A stretch of DNA of 64,000 bases, from the NCBI RefSeq assembly GCF_040396775.1, contig NZ_JBEBNT010000019.1, positions 7,880 through 71,879 on the forward strand. Direction: 5' to 3'. The translations under genes and the position numbers were made by a program. The number at the start of each line of letters is the position of its first letter. The first letter of the stretch is position 1. The notes under the pieces are model-generated. The model did no database searches, was not told where the DNA came from, and saw only the letters and a program-made list of their open reading frames with translations. Shown in pieces: positions 7,174-31,261 of the stretch. Origin of the DNA: Providencia sp. Lineage in GTDB: Bacteria; Pseudomonadota; Gammaproteobacteria; Enterobacterales; Enterobacteriaceae.

Positions 7174-8547
7174 ATGCAACAGAATACCGTTCAAATGAAA
7201 CGTGTACTGACCACCCCTGCGTTAGTGTTTTTCGGGCTTGCCTATATGGTACCGCTCGGGATTTTTACCACCTATGGACAAGTTACTGTATTAAGTGAAG
7301 GCCACCTGCCTATCGCTTATTTAATTACACTTGCTGCTGTCTTCTTTACAGCCATGAGCTATTGCCGCATGACCAGCGCACTCCCACTTTCTGGGTCTGC
7401 CTATTCATATGTGCAAAAAACCTTTGGCGGCACTCTTGGATTTCTTGTTGGTTGGGCACAACTACTGGATTATCTATTTCTTCCGATTATTAACTACATT
7501 GCCATTGGGATCTTTGTCCACGAAGCACTCCCCAATATCCCAATGCCAGTGATAATCTGCTCAACCATTGCGATTGTTAGCATCATGAACATTCTGGGTA
7601 TCAAACTGGTATCTTGGATGAATATGCTGATTATTCTGATGCAATTTGTGTTTATCGCCATCTTCTTATACATCTGCTTCCAAAATGCCTATGTTTTAGA
7701 TGTCGAAGCACTAATGGCGCCATTAACGGTGATGTCATCACAAGTATCAGGGCTCTTCGCCGGTGCTGCGGTACTGTGCTTAGCCTTCTTAGGCTTTGAT
7801 GCTATTTCGACGATGGCAGAAGAGACTAAAGATGCTCGTCGTGCTTTACCAAAAGCCATTTTATATACCGTATTTATCGCGGGAGCGATGTTCATTGCTA
7901 TCTCTTACGGCGCACACTTAATGTACCCGGTATGGCAAGACTTTATCCCGAACACCGATGTTGCCAGTATTGCAGTGATGCAACAAGTGGGCGATAAAAT
8001 GAAGTGGATCGGCGCATCCTTAATGGCATCAAGCTTTATTACCGCTTATGTTATTGGTGTATTTGCTTCCGCAATGACATCTCAAGCCAGTATTGTGCGT
8101 ATTTTCTATGCTATGGGTCGTGAAGGTGTGCTACCGCGTTCTATCTTTGCCTATTTACATCCACGCCTGAATACACCGGTATATTCCATTATTTTTGTGG
8201 CGGTAGCTTCGCTGCTGTCTCTTGTGCTATCTCTTAGCATGGTTGCCTCCATGATAAGCTTCGGTGCACTGATCGCCTTTACCTTCGTGAATTTATCGGT
8301 CATTAAACATTTCTATATTGACCGTAAAGCTTCCTTGGATAATACCAAACTGCTCACGTGTTTGATTATGCCATCGATTGGGGTTGTTTTAACCTTGTGG
8401 TTATGGACAAGCCTAGATGCAGAAGCCTTTACAGTGGGTTTATGTTGGTTAGCCGCAGGTGCAGGTTATCTCACTTTATTAACCCATGGTTTTACTCGTC
8501 GTCCGCCTGCTATATCCGATGCCGAGACTGAGATGATTATCAATTAA
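7174..8547 (+). CDS. APC-superfamily amino acid/polyamine permease (PuuP/PlaP-like)
   Basis: About 12 TM segments. GSAYSYVQK, GWAQLLDYLFLP and FGALIAFTFVNLSV resemble the remembered E. coli PuuP. The track ORF starts at 7093, but the ATG at 7174 follows GAAGGG by 7 nt. Confidence 0.8.
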   Translation: MQQNTVQMKRVLTTPALVFFGLAYMVPLGIFTTYGQVTVLSEGHLPIAYLITLAAVFFTAMSYCRMTSALPLSGSAYSYVQKTFGGTLGFLVGWAQLLDYLFLPIINYIAIGIFVHEALPNIPMPVIICSTIAIVSIMNILGIKLVSWMNMLIILMQFVFIAIFLYICFQNAYVLDVEALMAPLTVMSSQVSGLFAGAAVLCLAFLGFDAISTMAEETKDARRALPKAILYTVFIAGAMFIAISYGAHLMYPVWQDFIPNTDVASIAVMQQVGDKMKWIGASLMASSFITAYVIGVFASAMTSQASIVRIFYAMGREGVLPRSIFAYLHPRLNTPVYSIIFVAVASLLSLVLSLSMVASMISFGALIAFTFVNLSVIKHFYIDRKASLDNTKLLTCLIMPSIGVVLTLWLWTSLDAEAFTVGLCWLAAGAGYLTLLTHGFTRRPPAISDAETEMIIN

Positions 8548-8571
8548 TTTTCCCAGTACCTTTCGTTGATT

Positions 8572-8759
8572 ATGGGGAAGCTTATCTTCCCCATTGAGGT
8601 TGTTGACAAAGCAGGATAAAAACGTCGTTTTTCCTGCTTTGTGTTATCAGCCGAAAATCAATGAATTGATTTTCCTAATTATTTTCAAAACCTATTCAAC
8701 CTGCCACCAAACCTAGCCGGTTTGTCAGCAGTCTGTATGGGGAAGTATATCTTCCCCAT
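8572..8759. repeat. structured intergenic repeat element, copy A, bracketed by a duplicated 23-bp hairpin
   Basis: atggggaag-N5-cttccccat occurs at 8572-8594 and again at 8737-8759. The core of about 140 bp aligns with 18078-18217 (tgacaaag..ctttgtgttat..cgaaaatcaat..tgattttcct..ttattttca). Confidence 0.75.
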
Positions 8760-8768
8760 TATTTTTTT
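8737..8768 (+). terminator. rho-independent terminator (right-hand hairpin copy plus T7 run)
   Basis: 9-bp stem atggggaag/cttccccat followed by tattttttt. Confidence 0.6.
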
Positions 8769-8809
8769 GGTTCTGGCTCCTTAGGAGCCCCTGATACAGA
8801 CGGTTTACG

Positions 8810-15876: not shown

Positions 15877-18039
15877 CTACAACATTTCTAATCGAGCATA
15901 AGACGCTACCAGCCATTTAATGCCTTGTCCCTGAAACGCAATTTGCAATCGGCAATGCTCACCACTTCCCTCAAGGTTAATGATGGTGCCTTCGCCAAAT
16001 TTCGCATGTCTGACTCGCTGCCCTAATGCATAACCTGAATCATTCTGGCTGATTGGCGTACCAAGACGTTGATGACTGACAGGACGAGAAACTGTCGCTC
16101 TTAAACGTACCTCTTCCACACATTCTGTTGGCAACTCACCAATGAAGCGAGAAGGACGATGATAAACTTCTTTACCATATAAACGACGGCTTTCTGCATA
16201 GGTAATCGTCAGCTTTACCATCGCACGGGTAATCCCTACATAAGCCAGACGACGCTCTTCTTCAAGGCGGCCGCTTTCGTCCATAGACATTTGACTTGGG
16301 AACATACCTTCCTCCATTCCTACGATAAATACCACAGGAAATTCAAGCCCTTTAGCAGAGTGCAATGTCATCAATTGAACGGCATCTTGGTTGACATCAG
16401 CCTGTCCTTCACCAGACTCTAATGCAGCGTGAGATAAAAATGCCTGTAATGGCATTAAATCTTGGTCTTCATCTTGATAGCTAAAGTCACGTGTCGCGTT
16501 GACTAACTCTTCCAAGTTTTCAATTCGAGCTTGGGCTTTCTCACCCTTTTCTTGCTCATACATTGCTCGTAAACCGGAATCATTGATCACTCGGTCGGCT
16601 TGAACATGTAATGGCATCTCTTGGGTCTCTTTCGCTAATGCTTCGATTAACTCAAGAAAACGTTCAATTGAACTCGCAGCCCTGCCGCCCAATACCTGTT
16701 CGCGAAGTAAGTACTCACAACTCTCCCATAAAGTCAGTTGCTGATCCCGAGCAGTTTGACGAACTGTATCCAATGTTCTCTCACCAATGCCTCGCGTTGG
16801 TGTGTTCACCACACGCTCAAAAGAAGCGTCGTCATTACGGTTAGCAATCAATCTCAAGTATGAGAGCGCATCTTTAATTTCTTGGCGCTCAAAGAAGCGC
16901 TGGCCGCCGTAAATACGGTATGCCATCGCACCTTGAATTAACGCTTCTTCCATGACACGAGATTGGGCATTACTTCGGTAGAGGATCGCGCAATCTTGTA
17001 AAGCACCACCGTTTTCATGCCATTGCTTGATGCGTCCAACCACATAGCGGGCTTCATCAAGCTCATTGAAGGCACAATAAAGGGAAATAGGTTCGCCATC
17101 GCCGCCCTCTGTCCACAAATTTTTACCGAGTCGGTCACTATTATTGGCGATGAGCGTATTCGCTGATTTCAAAATATTATTGGTTGAACGGTAATTTTGC
17201 TCAAGACGGATAGTTTCAGCGCCGGGAAAATCATTCAAGAAACGCTGAATATTCTCAACTTGTGCACCACGCCAACCATAAATTGATTGGTCATCGTCCC
17301 CCACGATCATCACTTTGCCCGTATCGCCAGCTAATACCCGAATCCAAGCATATTGAATGCTGTTGGTATCTTGGAATTCATCCACCAAGATATTAGTAAA
17401 ACGCTCACGGTAATGCTGGAGAACATGAGGCTTGTTCAGCCATAACTCATGAGCACGCAACAGTAATTCAGCAAAATCCACCAGCCCAGCGCGATCACAG
17501 GCTTCTTGATAGGCTTGGTATACCTTCAACCACGTCGCCTCTACTGGATTACCATAACTTTCAATATGCTGAGGACGCAGCCCTTCATCTTTTTTACCGT
17601 TGATGTACCACATACCTTGGCGAGGTGGCCACTGTTTCTCATCGAGATTCATAGCTTTAAGTAGACGGCGGATCAGACGATATTGGTCGTCACTGTCTAG
17701 AATTTGAAAATCTTGTGGCAAATTGGCATCTAAATAGTGCTGACGGAGTAAGCGGTGTGCTAAACCGTGGAAAGTACCAATCCACATTCCACCTTCGCTG
17801 GTTCCCACTAACTGATTAATACGATGACGCATTTCTGCGGCAGCTTTGTTGGTAAACGTCACAGCCATAATCGAAAACGGAGACGCATTTTCCACCGACA
17901 TTAGCCAAGCAATGCGATGTACCAACACACGCGTTTTACCGCTCCCCGCCCCAGCGAGTACCAGTAAATTAGTTCGCGGGGCGGCAACCGCTTCGCGTTG
18001 TTTGTCATTAAGACCTTCGAGCAGATATGAGACGTCCAT
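15877..18039 (-). CDS. uvrD: DNA helicase II UvrD
   Basis: The track ORF starts at 18051. The ATG at 18039 gives MDVSYLLEGLNDKQREAV, matching the E. coli UvrD N-terminus. All SF1 helicase motifs are present. Confidence 0.97.
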   Translation of the reverse strand: MDVSYLLEGLNDKQREAVAAPRTNLLVLAGAGSGKTRVLVHRIAWLMSVENASPFSIMAVTFTNKAAAEMRHRINQLVGTSEGGMWIGTFHGLAHRLLRQHYLDANLPQDFQILDSDDQYRLIRRLLKAMNLDEKQWPPRQGMWYINGKKDEGLRPQHIESYGNPVEATWLKVYQAYQEACDRAGLVDFAELLLRAHELWLNKPHVLQHYRERFTNILVDEFQDTNSIQYAWIRVLAGDTGKVMIVGDDDQSIYGWRGAQVENIQRFLNDFPGAETIRLEQNYRSTNNILKSANTLIANNSDRLGKNLWTEGGDGEPISLYCAFNELDEARYVVGRIKQWHENGGALQDCAILYRSNAQSRVMEEALIQGAMAYRIYGGQRFFERQEIKDALSYLRLIANRNDDASFERVVNTPTRGIGERTLDTVRQTARDQQLTLWESCEYLLREQVLGGRAASSIERFLELIEALAKETQEMPLHVQADRVINDSGLRAMYEQEKGEKAQARIENLEELVNATRDFSYQDEDQDLMPLQAFLSHAALESGEGQADVNQDAVQLMTLHSAKGLEFPVVFIVGMEEGMFPSQMSMDESGRLEEERRLAYVGITRAMVKLTITYAESRRLYGKEVYHRPSRFIGELPTECVEEVRLRATVSRPVSHQRLGTPISQNDSGYALGQRVRHAKFGEGTIINLEGSGEHCRLQIAFQGQGIKWLVASYARLEML

Positions 18040-18057
18040 AGTTACCATCAAAGCAAA

Positions 18058-18237
18058 ACAGTGACTTGCACCACTGTGGGGTTACTGACAAAGAGGGAGT
18101 AAAATGTGGTTTTTCACTCTTTGTGTTATTAGGCGAAAATCAATAAATGATTTTCCTCGTTTATTTTCATAAACCCAAGAAGCCATTTCAAAACCCGATG
18201 GATTTGGAAATAGTTTAACAGTGGCTTACACCACTGT
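18058..18237. repeat. structured intergenic repeat element, copy B, bracketed by a duplicated 20-bp hairpin
   Basis: acagtgacttgcaccactgt (18058-18077) and acagtggcttacaccactgt (18218-18237) flank a core that aligns with copy A. The three core hairpins carry compensatory changes between the copies. Confidence 0.75.
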
Positions 18238-18249
18238 GTTTTTATACAG
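18234..18249. promoter_or_regulatory. LexA (SOS) box upstream of uvrD
   Basis: CTGtgtttttataCAG fits CTG-N10-CAG with an AT-rich spacer. It lies 8 nt downstream of the predicted -10. uvrD is a known SOS gene. Confidence 0.65.
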
Positions 18250-18256
18250 AGAGAGG

Positions 18257-18284
18257 ATTATACCAATGACAAAAGAGAATCCAA
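18257..18284 (-). promoter_or_regulatory. candidate uvrD promoter overlapping the yigB stop codon
   Basis: Minus-strand TTGGAT (18284-18279), a 16-nt spacer, then TATAAT (18262-18257). Confidence 0.5.
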
Positions 18285-18974
18285 CCGACAAATTTCTACG
18301 TGAGGTAATAAATGCCCTTCTTTCTCGTTCATCAACGTTGAATGGTCCACGTTAAACCAGCAAGCTTGCATTCCACTTTTGATTGCCCCTTCCACATCCG
18401 TTAGTAGGTTATCCCCAATATGTAAAATTGCGCTAGGCTCAATGTTTAAGCGCTGAGAGGCTAGATGGTACATATCACAATACGGTTTTGAGCGCCCATC
18501 AGGACCTGCTTTTAAGACAAACTGGAAATATTGCCCTAACCCACACTCTTGTGGTTCTGCATTACCGTTAGTGATGGCTACCAGTGGTAATTTTTCGGCT
18601 AATTTTGCTAACGTTTCATGTGTTGATTGCGGCACATCGATTTGGTTACGCCAGTAAGTAAAGTGCGACATAATCTCATCCGCACCTTTCAGAGCATCTT
18701 CTTTACTGTAACCATAGTGGCATAACATCATTTTCGACGATAACCAGCGCCAACGGGTAATATCATGACGAATATTGGGTTCTTGCTCTTCAACTAAATA
18801 ACGAAATGCATAAATATCATCGTTAGTAAAATGATGAAAACGCGGGTCATATTCACGGATAAACCGTAAAACTTCCTCTTCGGTTTTATCAATTACTGGG
18901 TGGTTGTCGTACAACGTATCATCCAAATCAAACGTCATCGCTTTGATGGGTGATAACGGACGGTAAAAGTGCAT
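18258..18974 (-). CDS. yigB: HAD-family phosphatase YigB
   Basis: 238 aa with DLDDTLYDN (DxDxT) and GDN..TDV motifs. Its start overlaps the xerC stop (TAATG). Position in the operon is conserved. Confidence 0.88.
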   Translation of the reverse strand: MHFYRPLSPIKAMTFDLDDTLYDNHPVIDKTEEEVLRFIREYDPRFHHFTNDDIYAFRYLVEEQEPNIRHDITRWRWLSSKMMLCHYGYSKEDALKGADEIMSHFTYWRNQIDVPQSTHETLAKLAEKLPLVAITNGNAEPQECGLGQYFQFVLKAGPDGRSKPYCDMYHLASQRLNIEPSAILHIGDNLLTDVEGAIKSGMQACWFNVDHSTLMNEKEGHLLPHVEICRLDSLLSLV

Positions 18975-25454: not shown

Positions 25455-26399
25455 ATGACATCAACAAATATCGTACGCATCGCGACGCGTAAAAGCCCTC
25501 TCGCTCTATGGCAAGCTTATTTCGTCAAAGCGAAACTCGAGCAACTCCACCCAGGTTTACAGGTAGAGTTAGTTCCAATGGTCACCAAAGGGGACATCAT
25601 TTTAGATACCCCATTAGCAAAAGTGGGTGGAAAAGGATTATTCGTCAAAGAGTTAGAGTTGGCTTTACTCGAAGGGCGTGCAGATATTGCCGTTCACTCC
25701 ATGAAAGACGTCCCCGTTGAATTTCCTGAAGGGTTAGGTTTAGTCACCATTTGTGAGCGAGAAGACCCACGGGATGCATTTGTTTCAAACCATTATGCCA
25801 ATATTGATGCGCTTCCTGCGGGTAGCATCGTCGGGACATCCAGCTTACGTCGCCAATGCCAATTAAGAGAATTACGCCCGGATCTCGTTATCCGAGACTT
25901 ACGCGGCAACGTGGGTACCCGCCTATCCAAGCTTGATAATGGCGAATATGATGCCATTATCCTTGCAGTCGCTGGTTTAAAACGCTTAGAGCTCGATGAA
26001 CGTATCAAAACCGCGTTGGAACCAGAACAATCTCTACCTGCGGTAGGACAAGGCGCGGTAGGCATTGAGTGCCGTTTAAATGATCAACGTACTCGCGATT
26101 TATTGGCAAAATTGAACCATGATGCAACATCGATTTGCGTTCTCGCGGAACGTGCAATGAATATGCGCCTCGAAGGGGGTTGCCAAGTCCCTATTGGCAG
26201 TTACGCCATCTGGCAAGGCGATAAAATCTGGTTACGTGCCCTTGTGGGAGCGCCAGATGGTAGCCAAGTCATCCGTGGTGAGCGTTTAATCGCACCTGTG
26301 GATGCAATCCAAGCAGGTATTTCTCTCGCGGAAGAGCTGCTTAATAAAGGCGCGCGCGAAATTCTAGCTGAAGTCTATAAAGGAAATGCACCAGCATGA
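25455..26399 (+). CDS. hemC: hydroxymethylbilane synthase (porphobilinogen deaminase)
   Basis: 314 aa, near-collinear with E. coli HemC ([32 protein letters not shown]). Confidence 0.96.
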
Positions 26400-27151
26400 A
26401 GGTCCTTGTTACTCGCCCTGAGCCATCAAGCTCAGCGTTGATAACAGCCATTAATGCAATAGGGGCACAAGCTTATGCTGCCCCCCTAATTACGATTGAA
26501 GCTGGCGCGGAACTGAATACGTTAATCCCACGCTTAGATGGATTATCGAAAAACGACCTCGTCTTTCTTTTGTCCAAAAATGCCGTCTGGTATGCAAATT
26601 TAGTGCTGCAACAAGCAGGACGAGACTGGTCAGATAAGTTATCCTATTATGGTATAGGACAATCGACAGGACACTATTTTCAACGGTTAACTGGACAGAC
26701 TATCCATTGGGCTGAAGCGGGTGAAACCAGCGAAGTGTTACTCACTCACCCTGACCTACAAAATTTAACCGGAAAATGTGCCATACTCCTGCGAGGAAAT
26801 GGTGGGCGTGAGCTTCTTGCCTCAACATTGCGCGCACGAGGTGCCAATGTTGATTACTGCGAATGTTACGCAAGACGCCCTGTACCGTATGATAAAACTG
26901 AGTTTAACCAAACTTGGTTTAACGCTGATATCACTGACATCGTCATCACCAGTGGAGAAATGTTAACGTTGCTTAATGATTTGCTCTCTGAAGAGATGAA
27001 ACAATGGTGGTATTCCCGCCGACTACTGGTTGTCAGCGAACGAATTGCAGAAAAAGCCCACCAAAGTGGGTGGCGTCGAGTCTGCGTAGCAACTAGCGCA
27101 GAGAATAACGCTTTACTTGAAGCATTAATTTCAACCGATATGGGATGCTAA
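26396..27151 (+). CDS. hemD: uroporphyrinogen-III synthase
   Basis: 251 aa. ATGA overlap with hemC. MKVLVTRP start. Conserved hemCDXY order. Confidence 0.9.
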
Positions 27152-30127: not shown

Positions 30128-30330
30128 AAAAAAAACACCTGCCGAAGCAGGTGTAAATACAATCAGGTCTACAGACGGATGGTGCCTCACTCAACGTTTC
30201 GCCCGTTCGTTGATGGTAAGAGGATGAGCTCTTGATCATCTAAGTTGGACAATAGGCACCGATAATCGGCTTTGCGTCATCTCTGGGTTTATGAAGCATT
30301 GCTATCATAAGAAGTGAGATGAGCATCTAC
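30128..30330 (-). ncRNA. glmZ: GlmZ (SraJ/RyiA) small RNA
   Basis: The minus strand reads GTAGATGCTCAT...CATAAAC...ATGACGCAAAGCCG...ACGTTGAGTGAGGCACC...CAGACCTG and ends in hairpin acacctgc-ttcg-gcaggtgt plus T8. It is collinear with remembered E. coli GlmZ and sits next to hemY as in E. coli. Confidence 0.85.
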
Positions 30331-30820: not shown

Positions 30821-30897
30821 TGGTCGGCGAGAGAGGATTCGAACCTCCGACCCACTGGTCCCAAACCAGTTGCGCTACCAAGCTGCGCTACTCGCCG
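30821..30897 (-). tRNA. proM: tRNA-Pro (UGG)
   Basis: 77 nt. Reverse complement reads CGGCGAGTAGCGCAGCTTGGTAGCGCAACTGGTTTGGGACCAGT...CGCCGACCA. Anticodon loop is TTTGGGA. Confidence 0.95.
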
Positions 30898-30927
30898 AAA
30901 TGTACTGCTTCACATCAATTTTTTTCG

Positions 30928-31013
30928 TGGTGCGAAAGGGGGGACTTGAACCCCCACGTCCATAGGACACTAACACCTGAAGCTAGCGCGTCTACCAATT
31001 CCGCCACCCTCGC
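30928..31013 (-). tRNA. leuT: tRNA-Leu (CAG)
   Basis: 86 nt with a long variable arm. Reverse complement reads GCGAGGGTGGCGGAATTGGTAGACGCGCTAGCTTCAGGTGTTAGT...CGCACCA. Confidence 0.95.
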
Positions 31014-31029
31014 AATGTCACAAAAAAAA

Positions 31030-31106
31030 TGGGGTGGCTAATGGGACTCGAACCCACGACAACTGGAATCACAATCCAGGGCTCTACCAACTGAGCTATA
31101 GCCACC
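31030..31106 (-). tRNA. hisR: tRNA-His (GUG)
   Basis: 77 nt including the extra 5' G. Reverse complement reads GGTGGCTATAGCTCAGTTGGTAGAGCCCTGGATTGTGATTCCAG...CCACCCCA. Confidence 0.95.
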
Positions 31107-31184
31107 ATAACTTCACTTTTTTCAAAGCGTTGCTATCATACTACATACAACGTCATTTTGCCAACCGTAGCGACGCGCTAAAAC

Positions 31185-31261
<77 letters not shown>

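Follow-up and report, generated by a model that had tools for sequence, protein, structure and literature searches.

Results

The window, as we call the whole 64,000-nucleotide stretch of the Providencia sp. contig NZ_JBEBNT010000019.1 that was analysed, contains one ~140-bp element twice, at 8596-8735 (copy A, in a permease-amidohydrolase spacer) and at 18079-18217 (copy B, in the yigB-uvrD spacer), with a locus-specific hairpin directly duplicated around each copy. A sequence-only reading of this DNA had described a ~140-bp core in these two spacers, flanked by a duplicated hairpin peculiar to each locus and followed on the right by a T-run, and the exact anatomy agrees with it, the duplications measuring 25 and 21 bp. 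The cores of copies A and B are 80% identical over ~100 bp by BLAST (E = 2.7e-16; 77% over the whole alignment), a match well above chance. The element is non-coding and 139-141 bp long: copy A overlaps no open reading frame (ORF) of at least 80 aa, and the sole ORF overlap at copy B is between a flanking gene's stop codon and the final bases of the duplicated hairpin. Elsewhere in the window, Rfam matches mark a sok antitoxin RNA of a hok/sok-type module (10826-10976, minus strand), GlmZ (30129-30330, minus strand) and a four-gene tRNA cluster (30824-31261, minus strand).

Copy A (140 bp, plus strand, subfamily A) is preceded by the left duplication TATGGGGAAGCTTATCTTCCCCATT (8571-8595, plus strand), whose stem-loop spans 8572-8594 and which is now parted from its original T-run. 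The left terminal inverted repeat GAGGTTGTTGACAAAG (8596-8611, plus strand) fits the family consensus AGryTGnTGACAAAs as well as the ends of IS1182-family insertion sequences (IS), and it is overlapped by hairpin 1 (ACAAAGCAGGA...TCCTGCTTTGT; 8606-8642, plus strand) in the same architecture as at IS ends. A central palindrome, GAAAATCAATgaATTGATTTTC (8653-8674), has an invariant stem and carries WATCAANNNNTTR on both strands. Hairpin 3 (CTGCCACCAAACC...GGTTTGTCAGCAG; 8701-8731, plus strand), in which 10 of 13 pairs have changed on both sides, overlaps the right terminal inverted repeat (8720-8735, minus strand; reverse complement CAGACTGCTGACAAAC), and this repeat agrees at 15 of 16 positions with the IRL of a Providencia IS1182-family element, CAGACTGCTGACAAAG. 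The right duplication (8736-8760, plus strand) has 2 mismatches relative to the left one, so that the pair reads TATGGGGAAG(c/t)(t/a)TATCTTCCCCATT, 25 bp each, and is followed by the T-run 8761-8768; a terminator scan shows that the upstream permease gene has its working terminator here, in the right hairpin plus T-run.

Copy B (139 bp, plus strand) belongs to a diverged subfamily, B, and has orthologues in five or more further Providencia species. Its duplications, ACAGTGACTTGCACCACTGTG on the left (18058-18078, plus strand) and a version with 2 mismatches on the right (18218-18238, plus strand), read ACAGTG(a/g)CTT(g/a)CACCACTGTG, 21 bp each, and the right one again runs into a T-run. The scan called terminators only at outer hairpin copies with a T-tract; at copy B these are the left hairpin, read on the minus strand, and the right hairpin, read on the plus strand, which indicates that a bidirectional terminator has been split.

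The element had been read as present twice; the two window copies stand, but the host genome (4.29 Mb, 37 contigs) has ~28 core matches by BLAST, 20 of them full length, and a search for further copies also found more in other genera. All 20 full-length host copies are flanked by an 18-31-bp direct repeat that is a hairpin differing from locus to locus. In a pattern scan of species-representative genomes, the family was carried by Providencia, Morganella morganii, M. psychrotolerans, Serratia quinivorans and one Cedecea genome, and BLAST added Klebsiella pneumoniae, K. aerogenes and Proteus mirabilis, with one copy each. Copy counts for relatives are lower bounds: many sister species hold at least 15-26 copies, and across Providencia, Morganella, Serratia and Cedecea the element is a recurrent intergenic repeat of at least 20-30 copies. 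BLAST found it in none of the 5,426 complete E. coli genomes and in no phage, and the plasmid matches were MITE copies only.

Hairpin duplications flank 65 of the 68 complete, scorable copies from Providencia, Morganella, Serratia, Cedecea and Klebsiella. They measure 13-34 bp (median 22), 40 are perfect, and the mean hairpin energy is -12.4 kcal/mol. At least four of the six bases to the right of the duplication are T in 48 copies, and at least four of the six to the left are A in 32; T exceeds A in 40 copies and A exceeds T in 16, an orientation bias. Among 39 perfect duplications, the repeat is centred on the hairpin dyad (|L-R| ≤1 in 28), its length tracks the GC stem plus loop, and its ends lie at the borders of the A/T tracts. 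Judged by eye, the copies of one complete genome have no clear replication-strand bias. A search of the host genome for other hairpin-duplicating elements returned only an infC paralogue pair, a false positive.

A few host copies are incomplete or rearranged. Truncated copies (query 1-110) were considered as possible ends of a longer element and rejected as plain deletions. A dusA-like ORF of 337 aa is fused by its 3' end to one copy (contig C20, 18763-18871) that is cut at position 110; the ORF reads to the fusion point and has its stop at the junction. Another spans two contig ends (C2, 421100-421177, joined to C37, 5605-5657) and has two full or partial hairpins on each side (acccatcatgatgatgggt); repeated insertion and loss at one hairpin might account for this four-hairpin locus, as might slippage in an internally repeated hairpin.

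Orthologous empty sites, another check that the sequence-only reading had proposed, were found for both loci and consist of one hairpin and a T-run. At copy A, the matches to the two flanks in the four closest species overlap by 26 bp, which sets the element's boundaries, and the overlap comprises one hairpin and the T-run; all other scorable members of the genus also have a single hairpin there. At copy B, the element is present in six species, while ACAGTGGCAAATACCACTGT plus the T-run occurs once in several species and on a second contig of the host assembly. One species has an internal deletion at this locus, and four (L047, L048, L052 and L053) retain a remnant in which the left hairpin is followed by 13 nt from the left end of the element and by part of a second hairpin; this looks like one old imprecise deletion inherited by all four. 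The single-hairpin sites at both loci establish insertion with target duplication, and the alleles at copy B are those expected if such an insertion then decayed.

Contig C28 of the host assembly is syntenic with the window at both loci (16877-17717 with window 8150-9150, and 25889-26628 with window 17700-18600; ~74-83% identity), and both MITE loci on it are empty. It looks like DNA of a second Providencia species or strain within the assembly, for which the contamination estimate is 1.9%. In other Providencia (L019, L023, L024 and L033), the permease-amidohydrolase spacer holds another repeat, with ERIC-like ends (...aataattcgag...gaagtatgacgggtat); since this spacer hosts different repeats, it is a repeated landing site.

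In an alignment of 68 copies from five genera, the element's ends are imperfect terminal inverted repeats of 15-17 bp with the consensus AGryTGnTGACAAAs, each overlapping a subterminal hairpin. Covariation was assessed over 36 pairs against shuffles and slid partners. Both sides had changed in 17 of the 36 pairs (10.7 in shuffles), and the covariation score was 0.18, compared with 0.084 in shuffles (0 of 500 reached 0.18) and at most 0.074 with slid partners. Hairpin 1 is paired in 98% of cells and has six pairs changed on both sides: its two central pairs vary among CG/AU/GC/UA and AU/GC, and three further pairs are altered in Klebsiella. Three hairpins with compensatory changes had been proposed, with a covariance analysis of the copy alignment as the check. 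That analysis upholds hairpins 1 and 3, but hairpin 2 (aaaatcaa/ttgatttt) is essentially invariant in all copies, and what differs there in copy B is a 1-nt deletion.

Hairpin 2 is the central palindrome, GAAAATCAATnnATTGATTTTC, whose stem is unvarying across the 68 copies and five genera. It carries WATCAANNNNTTR, the consensus of IHF sites, which also have an A/T-rich 5' flank. Both strands bear this motif in 65 of the 68 copies (1.2% of shuffles). The consensus match marks the palindrome as a putative IHF site.

The host genome contains no IS1182-family transposase in a search of the whole assembly, which extends the earlier observation that the window lacks a transposase. Pairing of terminal-repeat matches in the host, Cedecea, Serratia and Morganella yielded pairs ~112-138 bp apart and none separated by kilobases. 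The unpaired matches in Serratia proved to be two further MITE families, with ends CAGACTGCTGACAAAG ... CTTTGTCATCAAACT, hairpin duplications and unrelated interiors. In the S. quinivorans genome G041 (L206-L216) these families are ~125-130 bp long, and one has a GC-rich interior (GGGAGAGCGTGCCGAAGGGGTCGTAGCGGCTTGTCCGCC...). With several MITE families having the same ends around unrelated interiors, it is by its ends that the system is defined, not by its interior.

A metagenome scan with the terminal-repeat 16-mer CAGACTGCTGACAAAG, filtered for an inverted partner and a flanking direct repeat, recovered elements of 1,598, 1,528 and 664 bp, all with hairpin duplications. The 1,598-bp element has a 447-aa ORF that matches the IS1182-family transposase model NF033551 (E = 1e-152; 509 bits, cut-off 270) and contains the Pfam domains DUF772, DDE_Tnp_1_6 and DDE_Tnp_1. 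An intact copy of the same IS lies on a Providencia chromosome (L377), two decayed copies on the chromosome of another Providencia species (L378 and L383), and one copy on a P. rettgeri conjugative plasmid (L376). Others occur in two further genomes of the host's GTDB family (L345 and L361), on a K. pneumoniae IncC plasmid, in Salinivibrio and in Burkholderia pseudomallei, where the element is annotated 'IS1182-like element ISBma2 family'. NF033551 scores were 509 bits for L243, 507 for L345 and 487.8 for L377 (cut-off 270).

The IS is ~1,596 bp long, with left end CAGACTGCTGACAAAG, the right-end reverse complement CAGATTGATGACGAAC and a hairpin overlapping each end, and 11 of the 13 IS copies examined have whole-hairpin duplications. 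Full-length copies on a Providencia plasmid (NZ_CP120531; L375) and a Salmonella plasmid (CP054717; L385) have a different hairpin on each side and no duplication, a mismatch that fits recombination between copies. Six places on NZ_CP120531 match the IS, suggesting that the IS has rearranged these resistance or conjugative plasmids. Between the right end of the MITE and the left end of the IS, 15 of 16 positions are identical, with similarity extending ~70 nt inward, and the MITE left end also fits the IS-type consensus. The duplications had earlier been thought to lie outside known IS and MITE behaviour; however, terminal repeats, end hairpins and whole-hairpin duplications are all common to ISBma2-like members of the IS1182 family.

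A search for an rve-domain transposase common to the MITE-rich genomes found none, and IS3-type ends (TGTAGTGGTC...) resemble the MITE end at only ~10 of 17 positions. Among genomes of the host's GTDB family, a second type of IS30-family element (L179-L184 and L197; 392-408 aa, ends GCTGTGAGTTCAACGGGTCGATGCAAC) always lies centrally in a similar palindromic target (..CTGCTT.. / ..AAGCGG..).

Discussion

We conclude that the element is very probably a terminator-hairpin-duplicating MITE, a non-autonomous derivative of an ISBma2-like IS1182-family IS. The proposal that a mobile element inserts at terminator hairpins and duplicates them gains support from the many copies, each with its own duplicated hairpin, and from the single-hairpin empty sites. 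The same copies and empty sites, together with the lack of any Rfam match, favour a DNA-level mobile element over a conserved sRNA, as had also been argued. The shared ends and the shared type of duplication suggest that the MITE was mobilised in trans by an IS1182-family transposase. Host copies average 82-92% identity, with a maximum of ~96%; given this ceiling and a host that lacks the transposase, there is no sign of current activity, and the copies are not recent but relics, either of past activity or of a transposase that was provided in trans, for instance by a plasmid.

The first driver considered was an IS30-family transposase like that of IS1630, reportedly the classic case of an element duplicating inverted repeats of 19-26 bp. 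The 8 terminal nucleotides of the MITE (TGAGATTG or TCAGATTG) bear a loose resemblance to the IS30 tip, TGTAGATT. However, the host genome has no IS30-family transposase, and in the genus and a 401-genome family sample the IS30-family elements have unrelated ends and either no hairpin duplication or insertion at the centre of a fixed palindrome; in relatives these ends read TGTAGATTCAATTGG... or GCTGTGAGTTCAAC..., and hairpin duplication is absent. The host, genus and family-sample searches effectively refute this driver, which we consider very unlikely also because the identical terminal repeat and the same type of duplication belong to IS1182-family elements. Less credible still is local origin, in which replication slippage or recombination around pre-existing sequence would have duplicated the hairpins and no transposition would have occurred. 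Palindromes do slip readily, and the C2/C37 locus has four hairpin copies around its element, yet at ~85 independent loci in five genera a different hairpin is duplicated exactly at the element ends, the empty sites have one hairpin and no element, and the terminal inverted repeats are common to transposase-bearing IS. An identity as REP/BIME was excluded: these RAYT-associated sequences form clusters of ~35-bp palindromic units, each headed by a conserved tetranucleotide, and are not known to duplicate their target, whereas the present element is 140 bp long, with terminal inverted repeats and locus-specific flanking duplications.

Alternatively, the 140-bp core could in the first place serve the host, as a functional RNA (for instance an sRNA derived from a 3' UTR) or as a regulatory module (for instance a nucleoid-protein site), and owe its spread and conservation to that function rather than to transposition. 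The covariation in hairpins 1 and 3 would suit such a role, as would a central palindrome that is invariant over five genera and fits the IHF consensus, the position of all copies within a 3' UTR with a hairpin on one side and a working terminator on the other, and the orientation bias relative to the T-run (40 versus 16 copies). Rfam, however, gave no match at the gathering score (the sole match, to a miRNA, was at chance level, E = 0.07), and the autonomous IS has the same end hairpins, which makes these inherited IS features. Other MITE families have only the terminal repeats in common with this one, sister species have lost, truncated or internally deleted copies with no replacement, and presence or absence differs by lineage. 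We therefore think a host module improbable as the primary explanation; it allows for some copies having been co-opted later but leaves the origin of the element unexplained. The covariation of hairpins 1 and 3 was probably inherited from the IS ends. A requirement for pairing, either during transposition or in the regulation of the transposase, may lie behind it, and part of it could stem from quasi-palindrome template-switch mutation or correction rather than selection.

If the element is indeed an IS1182-derived MITE, the shared terminal repeats would be bound by an IS1182-family DDE transposase, and the target would be recognised by structure, as an extruded cruciform or single-strand hairpin, rather than by sequence. 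The two element ends would be joined to opposite strands, at both bases of the stem, and repair of two single-stranded, hairpin-length gaps would then leave a hairpin on both sides. In an extruded cruciform the attack points would adjoin at the junction, so that an enzyme with a fixed small stagger could generate duplications of variable length. The left hairpin copy would keep the A tract and the right copy the T tract; with these outer tracts retained, both flanking genes would keep a terminator, and we propose that insertion is thus nearly neutral. The element would be carried in the 3' UTR, with terminators serving as safe landing sites, and IHF bending at the central palindrome, suggested by the match to its consensus, may bring together the ends of the 140-bp element.

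A broader and more tentative possibility, which we hold to be somewhat less than an even bet, is that the ISBma2-like IS1182 transposases are structure-guided DDE enzymes that attack stem bases, and that the polarity of strand transfer decides whether a hairpin is duplicated, as in this clade and its MITEs, or deleted, as in IS1272. If true, terminators would be a deliberately preserved 'safe harbour', and the enzymes would constitute a natural sequence-independent, structure-directed DNA insertion system. The clade offers more than 80 natural insertion sites with matched empty sites and several MITE families, and is directly comparable with the hairpin-deleting IS1272, making hairpin targeting by the IS1182 family testable with simple substrates.

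For annotation, these results account for an intergenic repeat that recurs in Providencia, Morganella, Serratia and Cedecea and occurs singly in Klebsiella and Proteus, and identify the duplicated terminators around its copies as insertion scars rather than regulatory designs. Furthermore, each insertion adds ~165 nt of highly structured sequence, including a putative IHF site, to a 3' UTR, and may thereby change mRNA stability or DNA bending.

Relation to known elements

ERIC/IRU and Correia MITEs resemble the present element in being short, intergenic, highly structured and often co-transcribed, and Correia elements also carry an IHF site. Both families, however, duplicate a TA dinucleotide and are not known to target or duplicate hairpins. 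IS1630 of Mycoplasma fermentans, an IS30-family element, duplicates inverted repeats, but its transposase and ends are unrelated, which makes it an analogue and not a relative. Within the IS1182 family, ISfinder reportedly gives a range of 0-60 bp for direct repeats.

Other IS1182-derived MITEs have been described from the archaeon Methanosarcina acetivorans, in which ISMac2-derived elements are 160-169 bp long and have direct repeats of 4 or 0 bp (PMC3852290). These are likewise non-autonomous, but they are archaeal, and hairpin duplication is not reported for them. The IS1182-family ISPse1 of Paracoccus generated a 4-bp repeat (PMC3281130). A 2024 review of prokaryotic MITEs includes no terminator-duplicating family and no MITE from the genera considered here (PMC10969869), and our literature search by sequence and keyword found no paper that describes this MITE family or prints its consensus.

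The autonomous ISBma2-like IS share with the MITE a terminal repeat (CAGAyTGnTGACAAAs in the IS), overlapping subterminal hairpins, a terminator-like hairpin target, duplication of the whole hairpin, and occurrence in the same genus. Unlike them, the MITE is 140 bp long and non-coding, has an interior that is unrelated beyond ~70 nt at one end and contains a central IHF-like palindrome, and presumably relies on a transposase missing from its own genome.

The staphylococcal elements IS1272 and TnSha1, whose transposases are of the same family, also target hairpins or terminators, inserting into terminator hairpins whose sequence is not fixed (PMC4923244, PMC5678879). Siguier et al., as cited in both papers, noted in a review that some IS1182 members target palindromes, with data not given (PMC4923244, PMC5678879). 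Insertion of these elements deletes part of the hairpin and produces no duplication (PMC4923244), or the hairpin is described as 'replaced' (PMC5678879). IS1272, the best-studied member of the family, thus loses part or all of the hairpin, whereas the present element duplicates the whole of it, one per flank, so that the hairpin chemistry of the IS1182 family is not uniform. Hairpin targeting by this family was known already and the MITE family is new, while the rule of whole-hairpin duplication, and its contrast with IS1272, may be under-described.
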